This document shows, one piece after another, positions 17,761 through 36,090 of a stretch of DNA of 64,000 bases. A model generated the notes under the pieces. That model was not told where the DNA came from. It searched no databases and was given only the letters and a program-made list of their open reading frames with translations. Each line of letters starts with the position of its first letter. The stretch's first letter is position 1. The DNA is from a virus, in IMG/VR virus record IMGVR_UViG_3300036780_000209, positions 1 through 64,000 of that record, one strand, 5' to 3'. Made by a program: the position numbers and the translations under genes.

Positions 17761-18014
17761 GAAAGGGATACTCCTCGGGGCGCGAGGGCGAAAACAACCA
17801 TCATTGTAATGCCCCCGCGCCCCGGGTGTCTATCCTTCCAGGTCCCGCAGTTCCTCGCGGAGCTTCGCGACCTCGATCTTGCGGCGCAGCTCATGCGGCT
17901 CCATCGCCACGCCCATGTCGTGAACCCAGGAGGCGATCACGATGACGGCGAGGACCAGCAGCACAGGGCCGCCGATGCACAGCCAGAACCAGTGCCAGTG
18001 CGAGGTGAACCAGG

Positions 18015-19064
18015 TCACCGGAGGATCAGCACCTCGGTGCCGCCGATCAGCTTGCGGTTGTGGCTGGTGGACTGGATGAACACGTCCAGGCCGCCGATGG
18101 CCGGGCGGACCCGGGACTTGCCCGGGGACCCGGCCGGGGCCAGCGGGGGCAAGCCGAGACGCACCCGCAGGTCCGGGTGCAAGTACATGCTGCCGTTCTT
18201 GTCGCGCACCGCGACCTGCTTGTAGTCCTGGACGGTCTCGGGCTTGGTCAGCCGGTAGTAGACGCTGCCCGGGATGTACCGGCCCGCATGGCTGGCCGCG
18301 AACACGTCAATCCGCATGTCCTCGGCCGCGCTGGGGAGCTTGCCCCCATGTTCCACGTACGAGCCCCGGGTCAGCGGGACGAGCCCTGCGAGGTCGCCCT
18401 CGGAGAGGGCCTTGACGCGGAACAGCGAGCCCCGGATCGAGGTCTCGCCACGGGCGCGGGCCTGGAACATGGCCTCGGTGGCCTGGCGGAAGTGACCGCC
18501 CATCTCCTCGGCGGCGTGGGAGCCGGACGAGTTCCAGATCTTGATGCTCTCCCCGGGGAAGCCGTGCCTCTTGGCCTCGTTGCTGGCGCTCTTGTCCGGG
18601 ACGAGCAGGCCCACGTCCCAGTTAGAGTCAAGGTCCGCGATGGCCTTCGGAAGCCTGTCGGGATAGTAGCGGGCAACGGAGTCGTTCTCCTCGCCGTCAG
18701 ATGCTCCGCACAGGAAGAACGTGTGCTTGCCATGGCGTTGCGAGGTGGTCTTCATGTCGTCGATTGCCTGCAGGAAGGCATCGATCAGGGCCGTGTTCCC
18801 GCTGGGGCGGTAATGGCCGGCGATGCTCGGGATGCGGAGCACGTCCGTGTCCCAGATCAGGCATTCCATCAGCCCGTGGCTGGAGAAGGTCCAGATGGTG
18901 ATCCGGGTCTCCTGGTCCATTTCCTGGCTGCGCTTGGCCGTCCAGGAGATCTCGCCGTCCACGACCTTGACGACGGTCTCCTTGTGCGCATCCATGGACC
19001 AGGACTTGTCCAGGATCCACCCGATGTGGTTTGTGATCTTGTTAGTCGCGAGCGATGTCTGCAT
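18015..19064 (-). CDS. vWA-domain protein
   Basis: ILDKSWSM (MIDAS DxSxS), TALIDA and SDGEEN motifs; AGGAG RBS. Confidence 0.85.
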   Translation of the reverse strand: MQTSLATNKITNHIGWILDKSWSMDAHKETVVKVVDGEISWTAKRSQEMDQETRITIWTFSSHGLMECLIWDTDVLRIPSIAGHYRPSGNTALIDAFLQAIDDMKTTSQRHGKHTFFLCGASDGEENDSVARYYPDRLPKAIADLDSNWDVGLLVPDKSASNEAKRHGFPGESIKIWNSSGSHAAEEMGGHFRQATEAMFQARARGETSIRGSLFRVKALSEGDLAGLVPLTRGSYVEHGGKLPSAAEDMRIDVFAASHAGRYIPGSVYYRLTKPETVQDYKQVAVRDKNGSMYLHPDLRVRLGLPPLAPAGSPGKSRVRPAIGGLDVFIQSTSHNRKLIGGTEVLILR

Positions 19065-19119
19065 AGCGGCTCCTCGTGCCATTGATTGCAAGGGGGACTG
19101 TAGCGGCTCCTGCCGACAG

Positions 19120-19611
19120 TCAGGCGCGCTCGGCCGCGAGGTCGGGCTGGCGGCTCTTTCGGGGAACGCGCATGGCCAGGATCCCGGCCTCCGCCAGCAG
19201 GTCGCAGACATCCTGGCGGTCATCGTAGAAGACAGAGACCCCCAGTGCCCGGCAGGCGTTCAGCTTGAGTTCGGGGGCCTGGAAGGAGGCCGTGAAGATG
19301 ACCTCGTGCACGGGAACAAGCCGGGAGAACCCGGCGCTGCGCGCCTCGGCCTCGATGGTGCCGCGCCGGCGCGGGCCGATCGCGGAGATGATGAGGACCT
19401 TGTCCCCGCATATCAGGTGAGCGCGGGCCAGGCGCAGGAAGTAGGCGTGGTGACTGGCGACGTTCCACCAGTCGATGCCGATGGTCAGGGGCGGAGAGGC
19501 CGGGTAGAAGCCGGACCCGGGGCAGGCATTCCCGGCCGGGCCGTGCCCCCGGATCCGTCCGTCCTCGCGCAGCGTGATGTCCCGCCCGCAGCCGGAGCAG
19601 GTGGCTCTCAC
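19120..19611 (-). CDS. Zinc ribbon + HAD-like protein
   Basis: CSGC...H...CPGSG, IGID and FYDDR; GTGA overlap with the upstream microgene. Confidence 0.6.
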   Translation of the reverse strand: MRATCSGCGRDITLREDGRIRGHGPAGNACPGSGFYPASPPLTIGIDWWNVASHHAYFLRLARAHLICGDKVLIISAIGPRRRGTIEAEARSAGFSRLVPVHEVIFTASFQAPELKLNACRALGVSVFYDDRQDVCDLLAEAGILAMRVPRKSRQPDLAAERA

Positions 19612-19715
19612 GAGCAGCCCACGTGGCATCCGTAGGCATGGCGGTGGCAGTGATGCTTGTCCTTGTGGCTCCCGCAGTCACTGCAGAGGCAGAAGCACCC
19701 GGAGCAGTAAGCCAT
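19608..19715 (-). CDS. Cys/His-rich microprotein, family A
   Basis: GAGGAG RBS; MAYCSGCFCLCSDCGSHKDKHHCHRHAYGCHVGCS; stop overlaps the next start. Confidence 0.8.
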   Translation of the reverse strand: MAYCSGCFCLCSDCGSHKDKHHCHRHAYGCHVGCS

Positions 19716-19929
19716 TTTTCTCCTCAGGGGGGAAACGAGCCGGCCGGCGTCCGCCTGGACGCCGGCCGGTGAGCCTCAGGTGCCCTCGCCTCCCTCGCGG
19801 GCGGCAGGACTGCCTTCTGCTCGTCGTCGGTCAGGTGCGACAGGGCCTCCCCGAGGGTCGGAGCGCGCACCGTTGACGAGTCGCACTGGCAGTTACGATA
19901 TCTGATGCAAGGAAGTCTGTAAAGCCCTT

Positions 19930-21225
19930 TCAGCGGGCGGTAATGACGGGAGAGTTCGTCGTCCCGGTCGCCTGGACCACCTGGGCATACGAAGAGTTCG
20001 AGGTGCTGTCATCGGTGATGGCCGTAGTCGCGCCCTGGATCCACCCGGCGGCAATCGTAACGGCCGTGAGGGACGTGCTGTTGCCCTGGAGGATCATGCC
20101 GGTGGCGGGGCTGTTGGTGCCGGTGCCGTCGTCGTCCGTCCCGGGCCAGATGGAGATGGTCCCGGCGAGTACCGCGCCGGGGAAGGCGTTCACGTAGAGG
20201 CCGGCGTAGCCGCCGCCGCCGTGCTTGCCGTTGCGGCCGTCCCGGCGGAACGAGCACCCATCCACGATGAGGGGCACCCCGGTGTTGTTGCTGCTGGTGA
20301 TCATGCAGCCGTACTGCTCGTTCCGGTCGGTCGAGCAGCCGATGATCCGGCCCCCGCCTGACCCGGTTCCGGCGCTGGTGTTGGTGTAGGTGATCCCGTT
20401 GCCGCCATTGTGCTCGGCCCGGCAGCCGAGGAGGAGCCCGTTGGACAGGTTGGTCAGGGTCCAGCCGTCCCCGGCGCAGTTCTCGGTGTGGCACCAGCGG
20501 TAGTTGGCATCGCTGATCTTCGGGTGCATGAACCCGCTGCCCTGGGCATAGCGGATGGTGACGTGGTCGAACCAGGGGGCGTCCGGCCCCTGCCCGGTCG
20601 CGGCGCTGTTGACGTAGTTGACCCCGTTGCCGGTGACGTGGCTGACGCACATGTTGGTGACGTGCGGCCGGGAGATGTGGCCGTAGAACTGGATCCCGTC
20701 CACCGCCGGCTGGCTCACCTGGTGGGCGTCGATGTAGATCCCGGAGATCTTCTGCTCGACCGAGACGGTCTGCCAGCCGCCGTCCTGCTGGCCGAGGACG
20801 GAGATGATGCCGGACCAGGGGGCAGTGCCGTTCGACCAGCCGGGCACGGCCCTGATCACCGTGCCCCAGGCCCCGTCCAGGTACGTCGAGATCTCGTTGG
20901 CGGGGGACCCGATCAGGGCCGTGCCCGGCGGCGGCAGGATCGGCGCGCTCACCAGGTACGGCGCGGCGGCCAGGCGGACGGCCTGGCCGAGCGGCGCGGC
21001 GGCAGCCAGCGCGCCGTTGATCGCGCTGGTGTCGGCCAGGCCGCTCGGGTCGCCGGAAGGCGGGATGGTGGCGAAGACATCCTGCTGGGGGAGGCCGGAC
21101 TGCTGTGCCTGGAGCGAGGCGATCTGGCCCTGCATCAGGCTCAGAACGTCTGCGATGTTGTTGTGATCCTGCAGGTGGCCGGCCTGCCCGAGTGCTCGGG
21201 TGTCCGGCGGGATGATCGCGGGCAT
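19930..21225 (-). CDS. Right-handed beta-helix (pectate-lyase-like) protein, possible tailspike/depolymerase
   Basis: GDPSGLADTSAINGAL N-terminal motif and repeated NG-G/GC..N beta-helix turns; GGAGGAGG RBS. Confidence 0.8.
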   Translation of the reverse strand: MPAIIPPDTRALGQAGHLQDHNNIADVLSLMQGQIASLQAQQSGLPQQDVFATIPPSGDPSGLADTSAINGALAAAAPLGQAVRLAAAPYLVSAPILPPPGTALIGSPANEISTYLDGAWGTVIRAVPGWSNGTAPWSGIISVLGQQDGGWQTVSVEQKISGIYIDAHQVSQPAVDGIQFYGHISRPHVTNMCVSHVTGNGVNYVNSAATGQGPDAPWFDHVTIRYAQGSGFMHPKISDANYRWCHTENCAGDGWTLTNLSNGLLLGCRAEHNGGNGITYTNTSAGTGSGGGRIIGCSTDRNEQYGCMITSSNNTGVPLIVDGCSFRRDGRNGKHGGGGYAGLYVNAFPGAVLAGTISIWPGTDDDGTGTNSPATGMILQGNSTSLTAVTIAAGWIQGATTAITDDSTSNSSYAQVVQATGTTNSPVITAR

Positions 21226-21522
21226 GCATCCTCCTCCGCCACTTCCGGGCGGAGGAGGGCACGGTCACGGCGTCGGGGAGTCCCCGAGCACATCTTCGAA
21301 CGTGGTCTTCCCGAACAGGATGTCGGCGCAGGCGGTCCGGTACCCGGCGGCGAAGATCGCGAGCGGGTCCGCTGCCACCTCGGGATTGGCGGCCGTCCAC
21401 TGGCGGAAGGCATCTCGCAGGGAGGCGGGGATCTCCGGCTGGATCTTGGGCTGCTTCCCGGGCGGCGGCCCGCTGGTGCGCTTCGTCATGACAGCATTGT
21501 ACCAGATTACAAGGATCCTTAT

Positions 21523-22594
21523 CTAGTGCCTCATCCGGCGGCGGTGCAGCAGCTCGGGCGGCCCGATCCTGATCGGCGGCAGCCCCGGCCGGGGGCTCCT
21601 CTTCCGCCGGTCGGCATAGGAAGACCCGAAGCCGGGGATGAGTTCCGAGGCCCGGGTGATCGCGGCCCGGAGCACGTCCTCGCGCACCTCCAGGGTGACC
21701 TGGCACAGTGAGCACGGATCGTCGCCGTCATCGCAGCCGTCCTCGTGCTCTCCGTGCAGCAGCATCTCCTGGGCCGCCGCGACCAGCTCGGACAGGGCAA
21801 GCCGCGCATTGTCCAGGTCCAGGGCGAGCGCCATGATCCGGCGGCCACCCTGGCGGGTCATCTCCTCGGCTGCCGTCACCTTCCTGCGCGACTGGGCCAG
21901 CTCGACCTGCAGGCTGATTACCTGCTCGTCAGTTCCTCCCGCACCGGTCACTCATCCTCCCACCCGACGCTTCCCACGGTAAAGCGGCTGGCCCTCACCA
22001 GTCCTCCAGGCCGATATGCCGCAGAAGGCCTTCTGCGGCATCCAGGAAGCTCCTGCCGCCCTTGTCGATCCGCCCGAGGACAGACAGCAGGGGCCGCCAG
22101 CGGTCCCGCTCCGCGTCCTCCAGGGCCATCCGGGAGTTCTCCCTCTGGAGGGACGACACCTCGGCATCCAGGATCATCCTGTCGTCCTCGGCTGCCGCCC
22201 GGGCGGACTGGGTTACCCGGAGCTTCTTCTCGCTCTCGGCGAGCTGGCCGCGCAGCAGGACGGCCTCGGCGTCCCGGGAGCGGTACCCGGCCAGGTCCAC
22301 CCGCTGGCGCTCATGGTCCTGGGTCATTACCCCCAGGTCGCGCTTCGCCCGGTCCCGCTCGTTCTGCGCCGTGCCGAGCATCATCTGGAGCCTGCCGATG
22401 GTGCTGTCGCGGGCGCTCAGGATCTCCCGGTGCAAGCTCCTCAGCCGGGTCAGGTCGTCAGCCCGGTCCTCCAGCCGCTTCCGGGCACTCCGAAGCTCCT
22501 GCACCGTGGCCTCGAAGTTGCCGCTGAGGGTCAGCAGCTCGACGGTCTGGGCGTCGTAATCGGCGCGGAGGATCCTGTTCTCTTCCTCGGTCAT
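21523..22594 (-). CDS. Two coiled-coil hypothetical proteins (21995-22594, 21523-21951)
   Basis: Heptad patterns and RBSs. Confidence 0.6.
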
Positions 22595-22811
22595 GCGGCC
22601 CTCCTCGTGCGAGCCCGGGGCCTCGGGACGGCCAGGGCAACCCGGAGGCTGATCTCTTCCCGGGCCAGGGTGGCCTGGCAGTCACCCCCGGGCAGCCCGG
22701 GCTCATGGGCGCAGTCGCACCAGGTGCCCCCGGGGCATTCCCCGTGGCTGGTGCTGCGGCACGGACGGCAGATCATCTTTCCTCCTCGGAGCCGGGCGCT
22801 TGCAGGGGAGC

Positions 22812-24074
22812 CTACTCCGGGCGGATACCGCCGTAGCGGTCCTCCAGGTCGGCTGCCGCAGCGCCGGGAGTGTCCTGGCGCTTGCATGCCTCGTTGACGG
22901 CGGCCGGGCTCATGCCCCAGGTCACCGGCCCTTCCCAGGGCTCCCCGTACCAGTGCCCGATCAGGCGGCGGACCTGGTCCTCGCCGGCCAGCGCGAAGTT
23001 CTCCCGCAGGTCGGCCCGGCCCTCCCGGATGACGGCCTCGTCGAGCGCCTTGAGGCGGTTCGTGGTCAGCACGGTCAGCAGGCCGTGCGGGGTGGCGATG
23101 CCGTCAAGGCTGTTGAGGAGGCCGGACAGGGTGACCGTCCGGTCCTTCTTGCCTTCCTTGCGCTGGGTGGCCGCCTGGAAGACATCGGCGTCCTCCAGCA
23201 GCAGCATGGAGCGCGGGGACACGTAGGTGACGGTCCGGATGAGGTCGCTGTCCTTGTTCACGTCGGCCAGCGGCAGGTACCAGATGTCCATCCCGAAATG
23301 CCCCGCGACGGCCAGGGCGGTCGAGGACTTGCCGGTGCCGGGCTCTCCCTCGTACAAGTGGCCCCGGTGCCAGGGAATGCCCCGGTGGAGATAGGCCTCC
23401 TCGGAACCGAGGAAACGGCGGATGTCGGCGGTGATCCGGTCAAGCTGGCCCGGGGGCAGGATCACGCTCTCCAGGGGCCTCGCCGGCAGGTCGTCGAGCC
23501 GGCTCCAGTCGCCCCACTTGTCGAGGATCCGGAAGGTCGGCCGCTTCCGGACGCGAGTGGCCTGCTCCAGAATCCTGGCTATCTCGGCGAGCAGCGCGTC
23601 CCGTCCCGGCGGGGACGAGGCCGTGAAGACGATCTCGGGCGGGGTCCACCGCCCGTCGTGCGCGGCCTCGCTCTCGGCGACCTGAACCCGGATCCGGTAG
23701 CCCCCGACCCGGACGGCCTGCTCGCGGCTGCCGTCGTAGCGGAGCCTCAGCCGGTTCGCCTCGGTCATCACGTCCCCGGACATGATGACCTGGCGGGAGC
23801 GGGATGACCAGGCGACCAGGGCTCGCTGCTTCGCCGGGGGCAGCAGCGACAGCACCCACTCGTGCAGGTCATCGTAGACATCATCCTCGCTCGATACCCG
23901 GACCGTGAAGGTCCGCAGCGTCTTGACGTGGCCCTTCACCTTGGTGACGGCAGGCCAGGCCGCGTGCCCGGCGGCAATCGCCATGGCGAGGCGGGGAGCA
24001 CGGTCCCGGAGGGAGGCGATCAGGTCCGACGAGGTGCCGGGTGATTCCGTCCCGGGGAGGTGCAGGTCAGGCAA
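22812..24074 (-). CDS. AAA+ ATPase, BCS1-like
   Basis: RPLESVIL, GEPGTGKS, LLLEDAD, LSGLLNSLDG, TTN and REGRAD motifs. Confidence 0.9.
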   Translation of the reverse strand: MPDLHLPGTESPGTSSDLIASLRDRAPRLAMAIAAGHAAWPAVTKVKGHVKTLRTFTVRVSSEDDVYDDLHEWVLSLLPPAKQRALVAWSSRSRQVIMSGDVMTEANRLRLRYDGSREQAVRVGGYRIRVQVAESEAAHDGRWTPPEIVFTASSPPGRDALLAEIARILEQATRVRKRPTFRILDKWGDWSRLDDLPARPLESVILPPGQLDRITADIRRFLGSEEAYLHRGIPWHRGHLYEGEPGTGKSSTALAVAGHFGMDIWYLPLADVNKDSDLIRTVTYVSPRSMLLLEDADVFQAATQRKEGKKDRTVTLSGLLNSLDGIATPHGLLTVLTTNRLKALDEAVIREGRADLRENFALAGEDQVRRLIGHWYGEPWEGPVTWGMSPAAVNEACKRQDTPGAAAADLEDRYGGIRPE

Positions 24075-24420
24075 GTTTTCTCCCGTTCATGTTCATGATG
24101 TGCAGGAGCACGTTCAGCTCGTTCGGCAGCAGCATGTTCCCGGCCTGGCGGCCGGCCAGCAGCGCCCAGATCATGTCCAGGGCTCGTGAATCGCTGACAT
24201 TACCAGGTTCCTTGTCTTCGCCGTCAGTCATTATGACTTGCCGGGCACGTCAGGAAGGTCCCGGAGTAGGAGACCTGGACCACGATCTTCCACGACTGGC
24301 CGCAGGTGCAGCTCAGGTGCTGCCAGTCCTCGTCGGACCGGCCGAGGCTGACGCTGTGCGCAGGCGGCGGGGGAGGCGGCCGGAGAAGACGGCGGTAGCG
24401 TCCGGCTGCCGGGAGCATGA

Positions 24421-26416
24421 TCACCCGATCCTCACCCCGCAGCAGCAGCGGACCTCGCCGTCCGTCACCCCGGAGCTGGTGCAGTCCTGGTGCGACCCGG
24501 TGCCCTGGCTGGCGTTCTTGCAGGGCGTGCACTGCGTCATGAAGAGATCTCCTTGCCTTCGCTCGTTCCTGCTCGCTTCGAGCAGGCAGTCCTGCGGGTG
24601 CAGGTGGCAGCATGTCGTGCCGGTCCTGGCCAGGCCCAGGATCGCCCGGATGGTGAATTCCTGGACCGCCGCCGGGCCGCTCAGGCTGCGGAGCTGCTCC
24701 AGCTCGCCCGGGGTCAGGACCACGGACAGCCTGTAGCCGCCGAAGGCGGCGGCTTTCTGGACAGCTCGCTGCCCGGGATCCAGGGCATCCTGCCCGACCC
24801 ATGGCTCGAATCTCGCGTGCCCCACGTGCCAGTGCCTGCGATCGGTGAGGTTGTTCTCGTCATCGAACCAGCACGGGTAGATCTGCGCCCGGTTGGTGCT
24901 GAGCTTGTACCGGTTGGCGATGCGCCTCTTGTGCAGCCACGCCCCGGCCCAGGCATGGTGGGCGATCTTCGGCTTCCCGTGGCGGCCCATGTGCATCGAC
25001 CGGAACTCGCGGGTCGGATTCGTGCTGGTCACCGGCCCCTCGGCTTCGGGAGCACCGGGGCGCGGATCGAGTCCGGCACCTTCGACCAGTCGAGGCGGAG
25101 CGTCACGATATCCCAGGCGCGATCTTCCGACTTCTCGCGGCTGATCTCCCAGGCCTCGTCGGGCATCTCTTCGAGAATCCACTGGAGCGCGGTGCCCAGG
25201 TTTACCCGGACCGATGCGAGCTGGGTCAGCCCGGTCTCGCCCTTAGCCAGCTTGCGGTAGATGGTGACGCGGGCGCTTACTGCCTCAGGCATGCCTCTCC
25301 TCGGGCTCAGGATCGTAGCCGAGGACCTCGGCCAGGGTCATCTCCGACGGGTCGTAGTCCGGGTCGCCGTCCCGGAAGCGCCAGTACCTCAGCCCGGCGC
25401 GGTAGGCCGGCTGGGGAGGCTGCTCCAGCCAGGCGGCCAGCTCGCGCCTGACCGTGAAGGCCCCGGTGGTGCAGCCGCTGGCGGTTATCACGTAGACGTA
25501 CTCGCTGCGGGCCATTACTCGTAGTCCACGGGGTAGCCCTGGCGCTGGAGCCGCGCGACGGGATCCGGCACCCGGACGACATCGGCGGTCACGGAGACCT
25601 CGATCAGGAAAACCCCCTCGCTGCAGGTGAAGACCGAGGGACGGTCATCATCCTCGCCGAAGAAGCGGCTGCTGCCGGAAGCGGACAGCACCTTGCGCGC
25701 CTGGCCGGCAGTGGCCCCGGCCCGCAGGCCGAGCTGCAGGGACGTGATGTCGAACTCGGCGGTGCCGTTGACGCGGACGTGAAACGTGGTCACTGCAGGT
25801 CCTTCCGGGGGTCTTCCGGGCCGTCCTCATGGCCGCAGCCGTCGCAGCGATCGTCGTCGGCGGCGATATGGCCGAGCCCCCGGCCGGCGCGCTGGCACTC
25901 CGGGCAGGGACGGCACAGCGGAAGGCCCATCTGCGCGAACTCGGGGTCGCGGCAGATGTAGCAGCTCTCGCGGTAGAGGCCCCGGACGGGAGTGGTGGTG
26001 AAGTCGTCCAGCAGGAGCGCGAAGGCCAGGTCCCCGGGCCTGGTGACCGTGTGGTTCACGCGCACGATCCGGCCATGCTCCGGGCAGAGGGTAAACGCGC
26101 CCGGCATGATGTTGCGCGGCTCCTCGGCGATGTGGCCGCCGGAGCAGTCGAGGAATACCTGGATCATGGGAAAATAGTATCAGTTACAAGGTTCCTTGTC
26201 ATCCGGGGGAGCTACCTCGGTAAAGCCGCCGAGGCGCTCCATGATCCGGATGAAATTATTCAGGTGGCCGTGGGAATCGTAGTAGCCACGGCACAGCGCC
26301 GCGCCGAATTCCGGGTGCTTCCCGTAGCTGAGGGTGCCGTGGCAGATGATGCCCTGGGACCCCTCCTGGCCGGCTGCCCGGACCATCGTGCGCAGCCGGC
26401 CAGGGCTGAGGTGCAT
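24421..26416 (-). CDS. Run of small coupled hypothetical genes (including 25029-25292, 25285-25515, 25515-25793, 25790-26167, 26180-26416)
   Basis: Overlapping stop/start codons; several CxxC motifs. Confidence 0.5.
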
Positions 26417-26506
26417 CGGGTTGCCCGGCCGGAAGATGCAGGTGGCGCACTGCGCCGACAGGAGCCGGGGGGCCTGGTCACCAGGTCGAAGCAGCTCTCG
26501 GCATCG

Positions 26507-26605
26507 CTAGGCATACTTGCAGCCTGAGTGATCGCCGCCGCAGATAAGGCACCCTCCGCACTTGCTGCACGGGTGAAGGCTGCACGTGTGCGGCATGTCG
26601 CTCAT
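26507..26605 (-). CDS. Cys-rich microprotein, family B
   Basis: MSDMPHTCSLHPCSKCGGCLICGGDHSGCKYA, packed between neighbouring genes. Confidence 0.6.
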   Translation of the reverse strand: MSDMPHTCSLHPCSKCGGCLICGGDHSGCKYA

Positions 26606-26607
26606 GG

Positions 26608-26922
26608 TCACCGGCCGAGCACCAGGTGCACCAGGCCGAGCCCCTGCACCTCCTCGTCGTCGATCACGATGTCCGGGATGTAGCCGAGCGCTCCCTTGGC
26701 GGCATAGGCATCGAAGAACGTGCTGAGCCGGAACGTGCGTACGATCCGCTCGGCGTAGTCCGCGCCTCCCCCCGACCAGGCGACCAGCCGGAGGCGGGGG
26801 AACATGGCCCGGAGCAGGACGACGAGCAGGCGGACGCGCTCGTTCGCGGCGTCCTCCTGGCCGTCTGACGGGCGCAGGAGGGTGCCGTCAATGTCGAACG
26901 CGACCGTGATCGCGGTGGTCAC
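26608..26922 (-). CDS. Small HAD-superfamily protein
   Basis: AFDIDGTL, WSGGG, K and IVIDD motifs. Confidence 0.8.
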   Translation of the reverse strand: MTTAITVAFDIDGTLLRPSDGQEDAANERVRLLVVLLRAMFPRLRLVAWSGGGADYAERIVRTFRLSTFFDAYAAKGALGYIPDIVIDDEEVQGLGLVHLVLGR

Positions 26923-28469
26923 GGGATCACCACGGGGATGATCTTCTTGCCCGGCCCGATCCGCTCGGCCAGCTCGTGCAGCGGGTTCACGTCGTGACGG
27001 CGCTCGGACTCGGCGAGCGGCTCGACTTCCCGCGTCTCGCCGAAGACCGCCACCTGCTGGGCTAGCCAGCGGTCAACGGCCTCGCTGCCGGTTCCGCCGG
27101 GGTAGGTGACTGCGGCCAGGTCCTTGTGCTGCCAGCGCAGGGACGGCTCGCACTGGGCACTGGCCCGGGGAAGCTGGTGGGTCATCAGGTCCTCGCCGGT
27201 CATCCAGCCCAGGATGTCGTAGACGCCGCCGATGCGACGGGGCGACACCAGGCAGCCGGTGGTGATCGAGAAGATGTCGCCGATATGGAAGGACTTCGAG
27301 GTCATTCGCGGTTCTCCTGGCGGCTGAGGTAGTCAGCCATGATTCGCCGGCCGGCCTCGAAGGCTTCCTCCGGCGTCGGGTGACTTGTTCCGAATACAGG
27401 ATGGCAGACGCCGAACAGCGCCATGATGCGGTCGGCGTCCTCCCGGCCGAGGTAGCCGGTGACGTAGCCGACGTTCTCGCCGGCATGCGGGTTCACGGCC
27501 CGGTAGGCGCGCAGGAACTCCTGCGCCTCGGGGCCGGACCTCACGGCCGCGACCGCGTCGATGAGGTCCCCGGTGGTGGCCAGCTCGCGGCCCTGCCAGA
27601 TCATCTGCATGCCTCCGAGTAGGCCAGGAAGCTGGCGCTGGCCGCCCGCAGGCCGGCCGCCGCCCGGGTGAGGTTATGGACCTCCGTGGGGATCAGGCAG
27701 CCCGCCTCGGTGCCTCCCTCGTCCTGGGGGAGCACCGAGGCCTGGGCCAGGAGCGAGGCGGCCTGGCGGGTCAGCGCCCGGGCCGAGTCGATCAGGGCGT
27801 TCCTCAGCTCGTCGCGATCACGCATCGTCTGCCCTGGTCAGGTCCGTGGCAGCGTCGCGCCCGGCCGCGATCTCGTCGCAGCGCCGGGCCTGGGCCTCCA
27901 GGGCCTCAGCCTGCTGCTGGCGCTCCATGTTGTAGCCATAGACACGCTGCTGCGCGGCCCCGGCCCGGTAGACCGAGGCCATGTCACGCCAGTCCTGGGA
28001 TGTCATCTGCTGTTCCTTCCTCCAGGGCGGGGACCTGGACTGCGGTGGTCACGGTGACCGGCTCGGGCGGGATGGCGGCGATCTGCACGAGCAGCCTCAT
28101 GAGCTGCTCCAGGGAGACCCAGCCATGCACGTCATGAGTCAGCGGGGTGGGGAAGTGCGGGATGGCCGGGATGAAGAAGCCCTCCGCCTCCTCGTCCCAG
28201 GCCCGCTTGTCCGTGATGATCTTCCAGTGGTCCGGGCCGGGGCCGTGGAACCTGATCACCGCCAGCTCGTAGAGGCCCTCGCCCGGGGGCGGGAGGCTCT
28301 CGCGGGTGGCGTAGGCACCGGCACCGCGTATCACCGACGCCCCGTATCCCGAGGCGAACCGGTAGACCCACTGGTGGCGGGGCTCTCCAGGGCGGCTGGT
28401 GTCCCAGGCACCGACGGGACTCAGCTCCGCCGGCAGCGGGGGGAGCACGCTCTCGGGAAGGATCGTCAT
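26919..28469 (-). CDS. Five coupled hypothetical genes (27984-28469, 27818-28006, 27601-27825, 27302-27610, 26919-27305)
   Basis: Operon-like overlaps downstream of a TAAGGT-6nt-ATG leaderless promoter. Confidence 0.6.
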
Positions 28470-28537
28470 GAGTCCACCTTACCCGTTAACCAGGTTCCTT
28501 GTAAATGATAAGGTGGAAGACGGAAAGGAGAAGATGA

Positions 28538-28660
28538 ATGACCGAGGACGAGACGGACTGCCCGGGGAAAGGCTGCTCCTGCGCCTGCAGCGGCTGCCGC
28601 TACTATTCGCACTGCGGGACCTGCATGGGCGGGTGCCACAGGTGGTGCGGAAAGCGATGA
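28538..28660 (+). CDS. Cys/His-rich microprotein, family A, array gene 1
   Basis: AAGGAG RBS; MTEDETDCPGKGCSCACSGCRYYSHCGTCMGGCHRWCGKR. Confidence 0.85.
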   Translation: MTEDETDCPGKGCSCACSGCRYYSHCGTCMGGCHRWCGKR

Positions 28661-28803
28661 GGAGGAAGGAAGTGACCGGGACGGAAAGCGAAGACGGCTG
28701 CTCAGGCTGCACGTGCGCCTGTGACGGCTGCACGTATACCATTTTCAGCCATTGCTATGTCCATTCTGCCGGGTGCCACCGGGGATGCAGGGGAGCGTCA
28801 TGA
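28657..28803 (+). CDS. Cys/His-rich microprotein, family A, array gene 2
   Basis: ATGA overlap; MRRKEVTGTESEDGCSGCTCACDGCTYTIFSHCYVHSAGCHRGCRGAS. Confidence 0.85.
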   Translation: MRRKEVTGTESEDGCSGCTCACDGCTYTIFSHCYVHSAGCHRGCRGAS

Positions 28804-28934
28804 TGAGGGAGACCGAGGGCGGTACCGCCTGCCCGTTCACGAGCTGCGGATGCTCGTGCAGCGGGTGCAGCGCGAATCCGAAGGACCACTGCGTTAATCA
28901 CTCCAGCGGGTGCCATCTCCTCTGCGGGATGTGA
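28800..28934 (+). CDS. Cys/His-rich microprotein, family A, array gene 3
   Basis: ATGA overlap; MMRETEGGTACPFTSCGCSCSGCSANPKDHCVNHSSGCHLLCGM. Confidence 0.85.
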   Translation: MMRETEGGTACPFTSCGCSCSGCSANPKDHCVNHSSGCHLLCGM

Positions 28935-29068
28935 GGGGGGTGGAGGGATGCGGAAGCGCCGGCGGCTGCGACTGCTGGTGCGGCAAATGCACGAAGCCCG
29001 TGGGATTCGGGACCTGGGTGCACTGCCGGGATCACTCGGCCGGGTGCCATGCGAGCTGCTGCGGGTGA
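28931..29068 (+). CDS. Cys/His-rich microprotein, family A, array gene 4
   Basis: GTGA overlap; MRGVEGCGSAGGCDCWCGKCTKPVGFGTWVHCRDHSAGCHASCCG. Confidence 0.85.
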   Translation: MRGVEGCGSAGGCDCWCGKCTKPVGFGTWVHCRDHSAGCHASCCG

Positions 29069-29604
29069 CCAGGCTGCCGAGGTGCCCGGACGCCGGGTCG
29101 TGCTCATGCGGGTGCGATTCCTGGTCCGGGCACCGCTGCGGCCGGGGGGACCACTGCTGCCGTCACTGGCACGGCTGCCACCGGGGATGCAGTGGCTCCG
29201 CTGCCAGGGCGAACAGGGGGTCCCGGGGCTCAGTTCCCGTAGCTGGCGAGGTAGGCATCGCTGGCATAGGAGGTGACGGTGCCGGTCCACTGGCGGGTCC
29301 AGCCCCAGTCGTCCTCGACGTACATGGCGGCCTCGGCCTCGTCCAGCTCGATCTCCTCGCCCGTGTGCATCGCCAGCATCCGGATGACGCGGTCGTAGTC
29401 GCCGGACCGGTCCTGGGGCGTGACCAGGGCGATGTGCAGCTCCGGGATCCTGCCCCGGCGGAGCGACTCGGCCTTGCGCTCCAGGGCCTCCAGGGCCTGG
29501 GCCTTCCAGCCCTCCAGGGCTGCCTCGAACACCTTGCGGTGCCGCGCCCGGTTCTTCTCCAGGATGGCGATCAGCTCGGCGGTCTTCACGCTTACGGTAA
29601 ATGA
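29065..29604 (+). CDS. Cys/His-rich microprotein, family A, array gene 5 (motif ends at about 29190; no nearby stop, frame runs antisense through the next gene)
   Basis: GTGA overlap; MTRLPRCPDAGSCSCGCDSWSGHRCGRGDHCCRHWHGCHRGCSG... Confidence 0.6.
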   Translation: MTRLPRCPDAGSCSCGCDSWSGHRCGRGDHCCRHWHGCHRGCSGSAARANRGSRGSVPVAGEVGIAGIGGDGAGPLAGPAPVVLDVHGGLGLVQLDLLARVHRQHPDDAVVVAGPVLGRDQGDVQLRDPAPAERLGLALQGLQGLGLPALQGCLEHLAVPRPVLLQDGDQLGGLHAYGK

Positions 29605-29607
29605 CAT
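29230..29607 (-). CDS. Hypothetical protein
   Basis: Strong GC3 bias; TAAGGT-7nt-ATG leaderless start inside a palindrome copy. Confidence 0.7.
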   Translation of the reverse strand: MSFTVSVKTAELIAILEKNRARHRKVFEAALEGWKAQALEALERKAESLRRGRIPELHIALVTPQDRSGDYDRVIRMLAMHTGEEIELDEAEAAMYVEDDWGWTRQWTGTVTSYASDAYLASYGN

Positions 29608-30462
29608 GCAAGGAACCTTATCAGCCTCGCGGCGGGCTCGCTGGTGCCTCACCTCGCGCCAGGGACGGTGGCCGGTCACGGCAGCGGCCGGATGGCAGCC
29701 TTAGCGGCACCGGACAGCAGGATGCCGGCCGCGTCACGCCACGGGGGCTGCTCAGGCGGCCGGACCAGGGACCAGGCCCGGATGAGCTTCCCGAAGACGC
29801 CGGCCTGGTGCAGCCAGTACTCGTGGTCCTCGAACCCCTCCGGCCAGTCCAGGGTCTTGGAGGTGCGGTAGAGGAAGCGCCCCCGGGTGAAGCACGAGCG
29901 GTCCACCGGGTAGTACCGGTCGCGGAGCGGGCCGTCGAGAAAGACGGCGAAGGGCGGCTGGCTCACGGGCGCTCGTTCCAGGCGTGGCCGATGTAGAAGC
30001 CGGCCCGGTAAGCCTGGCCGCAGCGAGGGCACCAGACCGGCTCCTCCGGCCCGGGGGCGTCAGGCAGGCGGCGGTACCACTGAGCGGAATCGCCCTCCGG
30101 GTGAAAAGGCGGGCGCGGCATCGGGGTGAGCGAGTTCACGGGGGAGCGCGTCTCCTTCGGAGGTAAGCCGGCGCAGCGGGTCATGCCAGGGGCTGGCGGC
30201 GCAGCGCCATCCGCAGCCCAGCCGGGCGGCGACGGCACCGCACCAGCAGGACGAGAAGGTCAGGGCAGAGGCGAGGTCGCGCACCGTCCCCAGGGTAGCG
30301 ACGGCACGGCAGGATGTCACGGTTTTCCCTGGTCGCGGTGCCAGGTGATTCCGTCATGGGACCAGGCGAGGGGGGACGGGCGGGGACGGCGGCGCGGCCG
30401 GGAGGCGAGGACGGCAAGGAGGACGAGGAGGGCAGCCAGGGCATAGCAGGCGATGGCGGCGG

Positions 30463-30939
30463 TCATGCCGGCTCCCTGGCGCAGGCGGCGGCCGGGCCGT
30501 CGCAGTGGCGGCACCGCAGGTCCGGGAGCGGCCGGTGCGGGCACGAGGCGAGGAAATTGCGGAACTGGGGCTCGAACAGCGGGGATGGCAGCGTGTCCAT
30601 GGTGCACCAGCGCAATTCCGTGGCCTCCTCGGTGATGACCGGCTCGCCGGAGACGCTCATGATGTCCAGCCAGATGGTGAGCCAGTGCTCGCCGCAGTGG
30701 CACGGGTCGTTCGTGATGCCGCGCCAGCGGGGGGCGGAGGAGGCAGTGAGGCGGGTTTCCTCGTGCAGCTCGCGGGCGGCGGTGTCCTCCCAGTGCTCGC
30801 CGGGCTCCATCCGGCCGCCGGGGAGACCCCAGGTACCCGGGCCGCAGCCCGTGAGGCCACGGCGGATCATCAGGAACTTCCCGTCGCGCCAGGCGAAGAC
30901 GGCGGTGCCGGTGCGGGGCGGGCTGAGGTAATCTGTCAT
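30463..30939 (-). CDS. Nudix hydrolase
   Basis: GGRMEPGEHWEDTAARELHEET Nudix box. Confidence 0.9.
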   Translation of the reverse strand: MTDYLSPPRTGTAVFAWRDGKFLMIRRGLTGCGPGTWGLPGGRMEPGEHWEDTAARELHEETRLTASSAPRWRGITNDPCHCGEHWLTIWLDIMSVSGEPVITEEATELRWCTMDTLPSPLFEPQFRNFLASCPHRPLPDLRCRHCDGPAAACAREPA

Positions 30940-30970
30940 GTCACCATCCTAATGCAGGTTTCCTTGTATG

Positions 30971-31129
30971 TCACGAGGGAGGGGGCGGGGGCCTCGGCTT
31001 GCGGGGCGGGTTGGGGGGAGTGCCGTCGGGGACCTCACGGCCGCCGTTGCCCTTGCAGTGACGGCAGGTATTGTCAGGCCGGCGGGCGTCCTCTCCCGAG
31101 CCGTCGCAGTGACGGCACTTCTGCCACAT
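30971..31129 (-). CDS. DnaJ-type zinc-finger microprotein
   Basis: MWQKCRHCDGSG...CRHCKGNG + Pro-rich tail (two CxxCxGxG). Confidence 0.65.
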   Translation of the reverse strand: MWQKCRHCDGSGEDARRPDNTCRHCKGNGGREVPDGTPPNPPRKPRPPPPPS

Positions 31130-31437
31130 GACGGGTCAGCCCGTCGGGGGGACGACGTTGCGCCAGCAGTCCGGGGCGTGCGGGTCGTGGCAGGTGTCGC
31201 GCAGGCAGCCGTCGCACGTCGCCAGGGGATCCAGGCACTTCGGGCAGGTGCCGGGCGGGACGGGGACCGGGGTCAGGCGGCGGGGGCTCACGGGTAATCC
31301 CTGTCCTTGCCGGGTCATCATTTCTCCTCCGGCCTGCAGCTCTGCGCCGAGGGCGGCGAAGCCCTGGCTGGCGAGCAGGTCGCAGGCGAACGCCCCGGCG
31401 TGCTCCATCCAGGGGCCCTGGCGGCCGGCGGGGGCTC

Positions 31438-31755
31438 TCACGATGCCCTCCGGAAGATCCAGTGCGCCTCGTAGGTTTCGTTATAGCCGGGGCGGTCGAA
31501 GGTGACGGACCAGCCGGCGGCGCGGTAGGCGGGGGCGATGCCCGCGATGGCGGCCGAGACGAGGCCCGGGGCGAGGGAGCTGTTCTCCCGGGAGACGGCG
31601 GGGAGCACGTCCGTGGCGGGGAACTCGGCGTAAGTGCCCTCCCAGTGCAGCAGGATGAGCTTGTTGAAGGCAGCGAGGACCGCCGGGGGGATGACGGCAT
31701 GCTTGAGCGCGGCGGCCTCGGGCGGGGTGACCGGGCGGTCGAGGGGGATGTCCAT
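31438..31755 (-). CDS. Hypothetical protein
   Basis: MDIPLDRPVTP...YRAAGWSVTFDRPGYNETYEAHWIF; start overlaps the upstream stop. Confidence 0.65.
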   Translation of the reverse strand: MDIPLDRPVTPPEAAALKHAVIPPAVLAAFNKLILLHWEGTYAEFPATDVLPAVSRENSSLAPGLVSAAIAGIAPAYRAAGWSVTFDRPGYNETYEAHWIFRRAS

Positions 31756-31883
31756 CAGCGGCAGCCGGCGTGGCAGCGGCTGGAGCGGGGATCGCAGTGG
31801 CCGGTGCCGTTCAGGCACGGGCCGCAGGTAATGCACCCGCAGGCGCCGGCCTGGGTGCAGCCGACGGGCATCCTGGCGGTCAA
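31755..31883 (-). CDS. Cys/His-rich microprotein, family A (divergent; may be the C-terminus of a longer ORF)
   Basis: GGAGG + TTG; ...MPVGCTQAGACGCITCGPCLNGTGHCDPRSSRCHAGCR. Confidence 0.6.
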   Translation of the reverse strand: MTARMPVGCTQAGACGCITCGPCLNGTGHCDPRSSRCHAGCR

Positions 31884-33171
31884 TGTATCCTCCCTGGTCA
31901 CTCGCTGTAGTCGCATCCGGCATTGCCGCACTTCCGGACGCCGTTCAACGGTGGTCATGCTGTGCGGCGCGAGGCTGTACACGCACCAGCACCGGTTGCA
32001 GTCGGCGGTCACTTTTCCTGACTCATTCGTGGTGCACATTTTCCTGTTCCTCACCGGGGGCGGCATCATTGCGGCTTTCATTGTAATCGACAGGCGGGTG
32101 CCCGCGCAGGCCGGCCTGCTTCTCCAGGTCGCCGACGCGGACCCAGAGGCCGAGGACGGCGAGCGTCAGGACGGCCGAGACGACGGCCAGGGAGATGAGG
32201 GCCGGGAGGAAGGCATGGGCAGTGCTGTTCACGCCAGTCCTTTCCCGGGGGCCGTGCGGCCGTGGCGGAAGTGGCCCAGGCAGGGGAACGGGGCGATCCG
32301 GCCCTGCCCCGGGCTGGCGATGCGGCGGGTGCTGCGCGACCGGCGCCGGCGCATGGCGCGCAGGGCACCGTCGGGTGACTGGCCGGTGACAATGGCCAGC
32401 GTCCGGGCAGGGGCCGGACCGGGGGCCGCGTTCAGGGCAAAGAGCATCCTGGCCTGGAGGGCGCTGAGCTTCTTCATGACGATCACCTTCTGATGATGCT
32501 GGCGGAGGCGGAGCAGGTGATCATGCCGCCGCCTTCCTGCGGATGCCGGCCGGGAGCAGGCCGTTGCGGGCGGCCGGCTTGAGGCGGCGGCGCTGCACCC
32601 GGTCCCAGACGTGCGGGAAGACTACCTCGCGGCAGGCCAGGCAGCGGCCGTCGGTGCCGATCCGGCCGGCGCACTCTGTCGTCGTCATGATGACAGCTTA
32701 TCACAGATTTGATAGGCTTCCTTGTAATCGAAGGGAGAATATCATGGTGATTTCCGGGGCGGCGGCGTGGTGCTGGGTGCAGTTCAGCACCGGGGTGAGC
32801 AGCGGGTGGTTCCCGAGGGCCAGCGAGCCGCCGCCGTACGTGACGTGCGTAAGGTCGGCGGCGAAGCCGGGATGGGTGCCCGCTGCCGCCGCGCACCACG
32901 GGCACCTGCTGCTCGGCAGCGGCGGGGGCATCGGCAGCGGGGCGGGGATCGCCGTCGCGCTGATCGCGGTGGCGGCAGCGCTGGGCGGGAAGCTGATGAA
33001 GGGCAGGGGATGAGGAAGAAGCGGCACTGGGGCGGCTGAGGGGCAACGGTAACTCTGAGTAACCGAGGTTTGTCCTGGTCCGGGAGGCCAGATGCGGACA
33101 CATGGTCATGTGCGCAAGTCCCCCGGCCCTAGGGCCAACCCCAACGTTTTCTATACGCAGAGTGACGACGA

Positions 33172-33285
33172 TCAGGTGCCAGGGCAGTTCTTATGACACC
33201 CGGCGTTGTGATTGCCGCAGTGGTCGTCCCGCTTGCACTGGCTGCAGGAGCACGAGCCGGCTGATGCGCATACTGAGATTCTCAT
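33172..33285 (-). CDS. Cys/His-rich microprotein, family A
   Basis: MRISVCASAGSCSCSQCKRDDHCGNHNAGCHKNCPGT; TAGGCT-7nt-ATG possible leaderless start. Confidence 0.75.
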   Translation of the reverse strand: MRISVCASAGSCSCSQCKRDDHCGNHNAGCHKNCPGT

Positions 33286-33415
33286 GCGGGACAGCCTAAA
33301 GCCTCACTTTGCTCCTACGTGCCATGAATCCAATGATCATTGCAACTGAGTAACGTAGGAGCAAAGTGAGGCCATTCAGGCAGGCAGGATGCAAGGAAGC
33401 CTGTATACTGAGGGC

Positions 33416-33730
33416 ATGACGACGAACCCGTACTCCCCCCGGGCGATGCTGATCATCCGGGCCGCCGTCCTCTGGCGCGACGCCCGGGACGCCGGGGACC
33501 GCACGAAGCGCGCCACCGTGAGAGACGCCCAGCTTGACGCCTTCTCCCAGGTCGCGGCCGACATCATGGACTTCGCGAGCACGCCGGAGGAGTTCCGGGA
33601 AGCGGTGATCGGGGCCGTGCGCGCCATCCCCTGGACGCTGCGGGAGAGCCTCGGCCGCGACGAGGCCCTGGCCGTCCGGCAGGAGTGGAAGCAGGCCGTC
33701 GCCGATCACGCCGCCAGGGCGCTGGCCTAG
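33416..33730 (+). CDS. Hypothetical protein
   Basis: TATACT-6nt-ATG leaderless start. Confidence 0.7.
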   Translation: MTTNPYSPRAMLIIRAAVLWRDARDAGDRTKRATVRDAQLDAFSQVAADIMDFASTPEEFREAVIGAVRAIPWTLRESLGRDEALAVRQEWKQAVADHAARALA

Positions 33731-36090
33731 GGGTACAGCTCGCCGTCCATCTCGTCCCCCGAGACGCCCAGCCGGGAGCGCATCCCCACGTGGCGGGGGG
33801 TGCGGGCATACGCCGGGGCCGGCCCCGCGAGGAACGGCTCCGACCGCTCGGTCTCCCGGTGCGCCGTGAACTCGTGCAGGTCAGGGGCATCCTGTGCCCC
33901 CTGGTCCGAAGCTGTGATCACAGCTTCGCGCACCCTCGCGGTTCTCCTGAAAAGGGCCGCGTCGCTGATGACGCGGCGGAGAGCACGGGGGGCAACAGCA
34001 CCATCCTCCCTGTGCCCTCCCTGAGCCGCCCCGTCATCCTCCGTGCCATGCCGCAGGCCCTCAGCCTGCCCGTGTGCCCGTGTCCCGTCCCAGGTCCCGG
34101 TGCCATCGCTGCCGGTCACCCTGCGCATGGCGTGCACCTGGGTCTTCCCGCCTCCGGGGACGGGCATCCCGCCGCGCTCGTCACTGGACTCCCCGGGTAC
34201 CTGGGACTCCCCGTCATCCTGGTCAGGGGCGAACGGGTCCCCTCCCTCGCCGGGCGGGGGCTCCTCCTCGCCTTCCCCGCCGAGCATCATGTCCTCGGCG
34301 GTGGGTGCCAGGTCGGGCAGCTCCAGCGGGTCGGTGCCGAGCCTCGGTGCCATGATCATCTGCGCGGCCAGGGCCGGGGGGACCTCTTCGAGCTGGGCCA
34401 TCGGGGCGAAGTCGGCCATCAGGTCAGGGGGGACCGGGTACCCGCCGTCCCTCAGCGCGATGAACGTCTGCTTGCGGGTCTCCTGCTCGGCGACGGCGAG
34501 CTGCACCGCCTCGTCCTGGCTGCGCTGCACCTCCTCGTCCAGGTCGAAGTCCAGGTTCCTGGTGCGGGTCCTCATGGACACCGGGACCCCCGTCTCGCGC
34601 AGCGCCTCGGTGAACTGGCGGACCAGGTCCTCGTCCTTGAAGTTCAGGGTCTTGAACAGCAGGTCCGGGATGAGGAGCCTCGGCTGCTCGGTGATGCGCT
34701 TCCCGCCGGTCTCCTCGTCCTCTTCGAGCACTTCCTCCATGACCACGTAGCGCTTGCCGGCCCGCTCCTCGTAGTCATAGTGCTCCTGGGCCTCCGCCAC
34801 GATGAGGGCTCTCTTGCGGAAATGGCGCACCAGGTACTTCTGGTACCTCGTCATGAGCTGGGTGACCAGCTCCTTGTTCAGGGCGTCGGCGGCGTAGGTC
34901 TGGCCGCCCTGGGCTCCCATCAGGAAGGTGCGGCTCAATCCGAACACCTGCAGGACCCGGTCCTCGATCCGCTCGAAGTCAGGGGTCAGGTCCGGCATGT
35001 TCTCCTTGCCGAAGACCTGCTCGATCTCGATGGCGAAATTGTGGATCAGGGCGCGGAAGTCACCCGCCAGGGCCGCGTCTAGTGCCAGCTCGAAGGACTC
35101 CAGGTCGTCATCTGTGGGAATCCAAGGAACGCTCGTGCCCAGGTCTGTAGCCGAAGCTCCCAGCTTGCAGAGAATGAGGGGAGTGTAGAGGCGGTCTGCG
35201 ATCGAATCGAGGGCGGTGTTGAGCATCTCCTGCTGCAGCATGGGCCGCATGGCACGAGTGAGGAGCGGGACTCCACGGACATTGAACGTGTCCCCCTTGA
35301 AGCGGAGCTGCTGCATGAGCACCGAGCTGACCGGCATGAAGCTGTTCTCGCTGGTGTAGGCCACCAGCTCCGGGTACTCCTGAATCAATTTGTTATATTC
35401 CCAGGCCGGCTGCCTGGTCTGCAGGACCTGGCGGATCGTCCACGGCAGCCGGATGAAGTACCTCGGCTCCTTGAGGAACGGGGAGCGCTCCACCTTGACA
35501 TCATCGGGATTGAGCAGCTCCTCGTCATCCCAGATGCCCAGGTCCTCGTTGAAGGTGGCGAACGGCCACGCCTCCCCCACCGTCCAGTACTCGCGGCCGA
35601 TGTCCACCAGGAACTCCTCGTAGTCCAGGTGGTCCTCGTCGAAGAACTGCTCGGTGTAGAACTCGGTGAGCTTCTCGTCCTTGCAGCGCAGCTCGTGGCC
35701 CAGCACCGGGAACTTCGAGAAGATGTCCACGCAGGACCCGATGATCGGGTCCGTCTGGTACAGCAGCCTGCAGAAGGACCTGACCTTGGCCAGCTCCTCG
35801 TTCTCGGAGAAGTCATACGGGAGGTTGTTCTGCCGCCAGTAGAACAGCGGGTCCCGGGGCCGGCCGGTGGCGAACTGGATGTCGCCGAAGCCGCCTCCCG
35901 AGCCCGACGCCGCCGTGCGGCTCAGCTTGCCGTTGACGTGCCTGTTCTTCCTGGCCTCCTTGACCTCCGGGGTCATCTGGTCATCACGCAGGCCCCGCTG
36001 GCCGAACGCGAAGCCACGGCCGCCCATCAGGCGGATGACGCCCTGGTCGCTGTGCGAGCCGATCCGGGGATTGAACGGGACCCGGGTCAC
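33727..36090 (-). CDS. Portal protein with acidic C-terminal extension
   Basis: RLLYQTDPIIGSCVDIFSKFP, IGREYWTVGEA, LLNPDDV, RGVPLL and ADRLYTPLIL resemble Bxz1-like phage portals (recollection, not searched); GTGA-coupled start. Confidence 0.8.
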   Translation of the reverse strand: MTRVPFNPRIGSHSDQGVIRLMGGRGFAFGQRGLRDDQMTPEVKEARKNRHVNGKLSRTAASGSGGGFGDIQFATGRPRDPLFYWRQNNLPYDFSENEELAKVRSFCRLLYQTDPIIGSCVDIFSKFPVLGHELRCKDEKLTEFYTEQFFDEDHLDYEEFLVDIGREYWTVGEAWPFATFNEDLGIWDDEELLNPDDVKVERSPFLKEPRYFIRLPWTIRQVLQTRQPAWEYNKLIQEYPELVAYTSENSFMPVSSVLMQQLRFKGDTFNVRGVPLLTRAMRPMLQQEMLNTALDSIADRLYTPLILCKLGASATDLGTSVPWIPTDDDLESFELALDAALAGDFRALIHNFAIEIEQVFGKENMPDLTPDFERIEDRVLQVFGLSRTFLMGAQGGQTYAADALNKELVTQLMTRYQKYLVRHFRKRALIVAEAQEHYDYEERAGKRYVVMEEVLEEDEETGGKRITEQPRLLIPDLLFKTLNFKDEDLVRQFTEALRETGVPVSMRTRTRNLDFDLDEEVQRSQDEAVQLAVAEQETRKQTFIALRDGGYPVPPDLMADFAPMAQLEEVPPALAAQMIMAPRLGTDPLELPDLAPTAEDMMLGGEGEEEPPPGEGGDPFAPDQDDGESQVPGESSDERGGMPVPGGGKTQVHAMRRVTGSDGTGTWDGTRAHGQAEGLRHGTEDDGAAQGGHREDGAVAPRALRRVISDAALFRRTARVREAVITASDQGAQDAPDLHEFTAHRETERSEPFLAGPAPAYARTPRHVGMRSRLGVSGDEMDGELYP

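Follow-up and report, generated by a model that had tools for sequence, protein, structure and literature searches.

The DNA considered here consists of the first 64,000 nucleotides (henceforth the window) of the virus record IMGVR_UViG_3300036780_000209, whose 166,498 bp have a GC content of 66.7%. The genes in question encode a family of cysteine- and histidine-rich microproteins, lying on the minus strand as three solo genes (A, C and D in Table 1) and on the plus strand as a five-gene array (E to I, 28538-29205) chained through ATGA and GTGA overlaps. The three minus-strand open reading frames (ORFs) singled out in a preliminary description of this DNA are present and their translations are the peptides quoted there; likewise, the common residue pattern and the profile matches confirm that solo genes and array constitute one multi-copy, dispersed family. 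At least eight paralogues had been counted in the window; eight are recognized by profile and a ninth (J) lies outside it.

A hidden Markov model built from the eight window members and searched against the ORFs of the genome retrieved nine members with expect values (E) from 2e-15 to 6e-5, the next best ORF having an E of 0.05, and a second profile, made of 72 sequences, recovers the identical nine. The motif HC..[HC]..GCH..C, whose count over six frames had been proposed as a check, occurs seven times in the genome, always within 19.6-33.3 kb, and not once in 100 order-1 Markov shuffles (approximately dinucleotide-preserving), so that a similar frequency in shuffled sequence, named beforehand as the contrary outcome, did not occur; GCH..C alone is found seven times in the genome against a shuffled mean of 0.86. 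Of the eight window members, seven have their highest GC content at third codon positions (GC3) of the claimed frame, the exception being F, with position 2 marginally ahead (0.70 vs 0.68); the cysteine codons of the eight are TGC in 64 of 66 cases. The codon-usage log-odds of the members are near zero because cysteine codons are rare in the training set, and are uninformative for cysteine-rich ORFs.

Genes A, C and D are free-standing ORFs of 35-60 codons that end within about five codons of the last cysteine, their stops following it after 1, 1 and 3 residues, respectively. All three match the full-pattern profile, A without the first cysteine spacing, C with arginine for the glycine and D without one cysteine. 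Among the 66 members found in foreign contigs the stop lies 0-5 codons past CHxxC in nearly all. The last gene of the array, I, is the exception: its frame has no stop until 29604, 133 codons past the domain, and traverses the whole of the convergent gene 29230-29679 in the antisense direction, the coding score of this tail (29206-29604) favouring the opposite strand (+61 vs -13); either the stop was lost or an extended product of 180 amino acids (aa) is made.

Table 1. Microprotein genes, adjoining ORFs and candidate regulatory elements, numbered as in the virus record (RBS, ribosome binding site; E, expect value with the 72-sequence profile)
Feature	Position	Strand	Remarks
Gene A	19608-19715	-	Solo; 35 aa, 8 Cys + 6 His; E 1.6e-7; GC3 0.83 in frame
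Gene C	31755-31883	-	Solo; RCH replaces GCH; E 3.5e-9; GC3 0.93
Gene D	33172-33285	-	Solo; 37 aa, ATG; E 5.3e-10
Gene E	28538-28660	+	First gene of array; 40 aa; RBS AAGGAG; profile match
Gene F	28672-28803	+	Array; GTG start after GGAGGA; profile match
Gene G	28800-28934	+	Array; ATG overlaps stop of F (ATGA); profile match
Gene H	28931-29068	+	Array; GTG overlaps stop of G (GTGA); profile match
Gene I	29065-29205 (domain only)	+	Array; GTG overlaps stop of H; profile match
Gene J	146355-146474	-	Ninth copy, outside the window; found by profile
Gene coupled to A (GTGA)	19120-19611	-	163 aa; CxxC...C at N-terminus; weak PHROG hit only
Gene coupled to C (TGATG)	31438-31755	-	105 aa
48-codon ORF preceding A	19724-19870	-	TGA lies inside the Shine-Dalgarno of A
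Palindrome ACCAGGTTCCTTGT (1 mismatch)	28489-28502		Promoter-like stretch, 36 nt before ATG of E
Degenerate palindrome (3 mismatches)	33391-33404		106 nt upstream of D
Sigma-70-like promoter (TTTACA, 17 nt, TATCGT)	19895-19923	-	Contains 4-mismatch palindrome; upstream of ORF 19724-19870, then A
Hairpin, perfect 19-nt inverted repeat	33301-33372	-	Ends 15 nt before ATG of D; -53.8 kcal/mol, z -5.9

The claim that each solo gene has either an RBS or a leaderless start stands for A, in which a GGAG Shine-Dalgarno sequence and AAAA precede the ATG, and for C, whose TTG follows the RBS AGGGAGGA after a four-base gap. It is doubtful for D, which has no Shine-Dalgarno sequence, begins shortly after the very stable hairpin of Table 1 and is separated from the next minus-strand ORF by 62 nucleotides (nt). 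Two solo genes are stop/start-coupled to the next gene, as had been stated: the stop of A overlaps the GTG of its neighbour and the TGA of C overlaps an ATG. The product of C has 42 aa if translated from the TTG at 31883 or 38 aa if translated from the in-frame ATG at 31871-31869, and F has an alternative ATG start at 28657, overlapping the stop of E as ATGA. Neither the gene coupled to C nor the 48-codon ORF that precedes A matches any known family.

A further minus-strand ORF, 26507-26611, was considered as a tenth member and rejected, since the family profile gives no match; its 34-aa product (7 Cys + 3 His), GTGA-coupled to the upstream gene, represents a second kind of cysteine-rich microprotein, of which a weak look-alike (phmmer E 0.3), ending in ...HTVCGECGTCLTCGQRHHGTC..., is found at about 38610-38713 on the plus strand.

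Protein pattern, distribution and selection

The eight window members share the pattern C-x5-C-x-C-x-C-x2-C-xn-HC-x2-H-x2-GCH-x2-C, their first cysteine being residue 4-10 and thus preceded by 3-9 residues, and the core common to the whole family, C-x5-C-x-C-x-C-x2-C-x(3-15)-H-C-x2-H-x3-C-H-x2-C, contains eight cysteines and three histidines. The median core, measured from the first to the last cysteine, is 35 residues in proteins that are 35-50 residues long. In an alignment of 76 unique members (profile numbering) C13, C15, C20, H27, C28 and C35 are conserved in at least 74 (>=97%) and C7, C17, H31, H36 and C39 in 64-73 (84-96%); G34 is kept in 56 and about half have an Ala-Gly pair before C13, all the remaining columns being variable. 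The net charge ranges from -5 to +8 with a median of 0, the number of aromatic residues from 0 to 6, and the loops vary in length. Three tandem members on contig L044 (1731-2443, 57% GC) carry acidic/hydrophobic N-terminal extensions of 20-37 residues, which the window copies lack.

When 1.84 billion representative proteins were searched exhaustively by profile, five proteins were retrieved (E 6e-5 to 5e-4), all with the full pattern and one consisting of two fused domains, this double-domain protein being the sole longer form among the proteins found by profile; their contigs carry additional copies that had not been called, L044 having a tandem of three and L046 seven. A second profile search, made with 23 sequences, added two proteins, P0006 (from L044) and P0007 (which is the 146-kb copy, J). 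The family is thus represented by only about seven clusters in collections of 1.8-5.8 billion predicted proteins, each labelled hypothetical. On contig L045 a neighbouring gene is 57% identical to window gene 24556-25023.

Since gene callers evidently miss these ORFs, the DNA of IMG/VR and of prokaryote genomes was scanned directly with a degenerate pattern obtained by back-translation of the C-terminal motif. In IMG/VR, 27 of the 46 pattern-matching loci contain profile-supported members, 66 in all, on contigs of 46-68% GC, with arrays of nine (L055, L090), eight (L069), seven (L089), four (L071, L081) and three genes (L066). Members occupy separate places on some large contigs (L066 with L072; L085 with L088), and dispersal is therefore a trait of the family. 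The prokaryote scan, which covered one genome for each of about 185,000 species, gave at least 120 loci; those among the matches listed are chance-like, with the forced C-terminal motif and neither the N-terminal half nor a nearby stop, and two or three matches among them in metagenome-assembled genomes of Saccharibacteria are doubtful. As far as sampled, the family is thus viral.

Other searches returned nothing of relevance: tblastn of two members found no match in 50,697 GenBank phages, the eight window members retrieved no protein from a word-indexed search, Pfam, NCBIfam and PHROGs gave no relevant match to the 72 members, PDB sequences, searched by profile up to an E of 10, contained none, and no description of a Cys8-His3 family was found in the literature searched. 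These microproteins are a new family within a known general kind, the small Cys/His metal-binding proteins. In other phages the arrays are surrounded by small genes of unknown function and lie beside lysis or replication genes, their recurrent neighbours being a GH25 endolysin, a peptidoglycan-binding protein, DNA polymerase A, HNH endonucleases and a KTSC protein; HNH endonuclease genes are found inserted into or directly beside arrays on two contigs (L046, 1782-2291; L069, 6847-7287).

Orthologous members could be paired across three related phage contigs (L055, L089 and L071), their products being 59-95% identical, and wherever synonymous divergence (dS) could be estimated, the ratio of nonsynonymous to synonymous divergence (dN/dS) lies between 0.03 and 0.17; the orthologues are therefore under purifying, not diversifying, selection. 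Synonymous sites are saturated for pairs at 59-73% identity, and because the same is expected of the window paralogues, which are 41-53% identical over the core, the analysis of dN/dS was confined to orthologues. Members from unrelated phages resemble the copies of this genome just as closely (45-56%) as these resemble one another, most of this identity being due to the ligand positions. The repeated duplication invoked in the preliminary description is thus not supported for the recent past of this genome, identities of this level fitting old duplicates as well as separate acquisitions, and the selection for diversity invoked with it finds no support in the dN/dS values of the orthologues. 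In the three related phages the arrays have nine, at least seven and at least four genes, respectively (L089 and L071 being partial stretches of longer contigs), differences that are consistent with gene gain and loss.

Promoter palindrome and accessory region

The palindrome ACAAGGWWCCTTGT, with no more than two mismatches, has 24 copies in the genome, 15 of which are in the window, where 0.1 are expected, and it sits inside sigma-70-like promoters. Several copies (e.g., 40429, 43273, 47893, 49518 and 33391) occupy the spacer of TTGACA-type promoters and run into a TATTCT-like -10 element, and in several of these promoters an ATG follows the -10 element after six bases, which suggests that the genes are leaderless; other copies directly abut the ATG, as at 29608 (minus strand) and on contig L045.

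According to the preliminary description three of the four microprotein loci in the window lie close to this palindrome, which pointed to their co-regulation. A good copy, with a single mismatch, precedes only the array; the copies near D and A have three and four mismatches, respectively, the latter about 190 nt upstream of A, and there is none near C or J. Furthermore, beyond the copy near D the plus strand continues with TATACT, six bases and an ATG at 33416, so that this copy fits a divergent plus-strand gene starting there. Co-regulation through the palindrome is thus only weakly supported; the element is general to the genome and defines no regulon specific to the microproteins. The hairpin upstream of D, which is unique in the window, has no U-tract and lies between the divergent promoter region and the ATG of D, may serve as a site of processing, as a terminator or as a structure of the 5' untranslated region.

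The portal protein is encoded by an 835-aa ORF at 33727-36234 on the minus strand (PHROG 2833, E 5e-143). Among isolated phages, large mycobacteriophages of about 151-157 kb come closest by this protein (39% amino-acid identity), and 42 related contigs are found in IMG/VR, five of which are complete genomes of 162-166 kb with portals 62-78% identical. The host is probably an actinomycete. An identical search detected no microprotein member in these five complete phages vs nine in the present genome. Downstream of the portal gene, the stretch 17-33.7 kb holds about 30 small genes over approximately 16 kb, and only one of them, 26180-26416, has a homologue within 10 kb of the portal gene of relatives (on L028, among 12 related phage contigs). 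On this distribution of homologues, 17000-33700 can be described as a hypervariable accessory region, and all window members fall within it. A megablast search of 27-34 kb against the 50,697 GenBank phages gave no match. The accessory region also encodes a BCS1-like AAA ATPase, a NUDIX hydrolase and a DUF7736 protein.

Candidate functions of the microproteins

Eleven conserved soft ligands within 35 residues, including three invariant histidines, point to metal coordination, with two or three Zn(II) ions as the most likely occupants on chemical grounds, and the peptide presumably folds around a small metal cluster. That the family is real, metal-binding and phage-specific is, on the sequence data, very probable. 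The best overall explanation, which we consider evenly balanced between true and false, is that of a virus-specific metal-cluster scaffold, probably for zinc, with variable surfaces that serve as binders of host targets. The cluster would take the place of a hydrophobic core, the loops between the ligands could then vary freely so that each paralogue would present a different surface on one rigid scaffold, and a phage with several diverged copies in its accessory region would have in them a panel of small binders directed at host proteins, for host takeover or counter-defence. A binder scaffold is the best fit because the ligands are invariant and the surfaces variable, because the paralogues are old and each under purifying selection, and because the genes are located in an accessory region and restricted to viruses. 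The binder function taken by itself is a tentative proposal, somewhat below even, and stands less firmly than metal binding.

Some observations weigh against this explanation. The genes next to the solo members have no known function in family searches, and no partner is indicated; conservation of ligands only is equally expected of a protein that purely buffers metal; purifying selection on orthologues does not by itself indicate an arms race; and AlphaFold2, run without metal on alignments of 23 and 72 sequences, gave no usable fold (predicted local distance difference test, 57 and 62).

Known systems offer partial parallels. The CXC/tesmin and pre-SET domains are zinc clusters with about nine ligands and three Zn that fold only around the multi-zinc cluster, and they likewise have dense CxC/CxCxxC runs of ligands within 40-50 residues; unlike the microproteins, they are eukaryotic domains of large proteins, their histidine usage and spacing are different, and no Pfam match connects the two. 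As an analogy only, conotoxins, defensins and knottins combine a conserved cysteine framework with hypervariable residues between the cysteines and form multigene families; these are, however, secreted and stabilized by disulfides, whereas the microproteins lack a signal peptide and would be held together by metal in the cytoplasm.

The main rival to the binder scaffold is metal buffering, which we regard as unlikely, though the least so of the alternatives. According to this explanation the microproteins would resemble metallothioneins, binding Zn or Cu(I) in bulk during infection and thereby supplying phage metalloenzymes, or protecting against or manipulating host metal homeostasis, with the copies raising the dosage. 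Approximately 30% of the core residues are Cys or His, conservation is confined to the ligand positions, the genes are multi-copy and translationally coupled, and the 11 ligands equal the number in SmtA, whose cluster is Zn4Cys9His2; indeed, SmtA/BmtA (PF02069) are also small, have CxC and CxxC motifs with 11 mixed Cys/His ligands and are conserved at their ligands only. On the other hand, the PF02069 profile matches no member (none at E up to 10 among the nine ORFs, none at E up to 0.1 among the 72 members), the spacing of the ligands is different and the microproteins are virus-encoded, multi-copy, strongly diverged and 15-20 residues shorter. Moreover, dosage amplification usually gives near-identical copies, whereas these are 41-53% identical over the core, and individual orthologues (86-95% identity) are conserved well past the ligands, aromatic and hydrophobic residues being common. 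In a six-frame search of the genome the only PF02069 match is a weak one, below cut-off (158098-158199, minus strand, locus L214; E 0.0015, 16.8 bits), in a 270-aa open frame unrelated to and far from the microproteins.

It is improbable that the microproteins are small zinc-finger regulators that bind nucleic acids and act on genes of the phage or of the host, after the manner of Mu Com or P2 Ogr. Small phage regulators of this type do exist, Mu Com (PMC6483171) among them, and some members are strongly basic, with charges up to +8. Yet the charges centre on a median of 0, acidic members being numerous, no similarity to Pfam or PDB-sequence zinc-finger families was found, and nine diverged copies in one genome would be unusual; Mu Com itself, although likewise phage-encoded, zinc-binding and of less than 70 aa, has a single Cys4 site, is a single-copy RNA-binding regulator and has no sequence similarity to the microproteins.

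Even less probable is that the genes encode precursors of ribosomally synthesized and post-translationally modified peptides (RiPPs), with thioether or other cysteine cross-links, that are possibly released as toxins or signals. The nearest ESM Atlas feature neighbours are a radical SAM-modified RiPP and a lantibiotic (score 0.80, not significant), and the N-terminal extensions of the L044 members could be leaders. Against such precursors speaks the failure to find a maturase: the 166-kb genome has no radical SAM, LanC-like or YcaO gene (PF04055, PF05147 and PF02624 were not found) and no modifying enzyme recurs beside the arrays of other phages; in addition, only 3-9 residues precede the first cysteine of the window members, the three invariant histidines among the cysteines point to metal ligation and the solo copies are embedded in unrelated operons.

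Lastly, the explanation that GC-rich DNA has given rise to ORFs by chance, or to non-coding repeats, has a negligible probability. The near-zero codon-usage scores and the lack of a nearby stop in I might speak for it, but it is refuted by the shuffles without the motif, by the stops directly after it in foreign members and by dN/dS values well under 1, the pattern being moreover conserved in frame over 76 unique members from phages of 46-68% GC.

The binder scaffold, if extended to the family at large, leads to a broader proposal that is possible but doubtful, namely a repertoire of zinc-stapled mini-binders, private and quickly turned over, in the phages of many hosts, each paralogue neutralizing a different host protein, for instance of a defence system, and the arrays growing, shrinking and dispersing by birth and death.

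As to the significance of the family, at least 27 viral loci, with arrays of up to nine genes, represent an annotation gap, nearly all having been missed by gene callers and family databases. With eleven conserved ligands to about 35 residues, the microproteins may adopt a minimal metal-cluster fold whose surfaces are free to vary and which may offer a scaffold for protein engineering. Should they prove to be metal buffers, phages would have their first metallothioneins, none having been found in the literature searched and no earlier one being known to us. If instead the paralogues bind different host targets, they would constitute a new class of host-takeover or counter-defence proteins; and were the mini-binder repertoire to exist, it would be the cytoplasmic counterpart of the disulfide-framework toxin and defensin families and a layer of the phage-host conflict that was missed because its genes are too small for gene callers.

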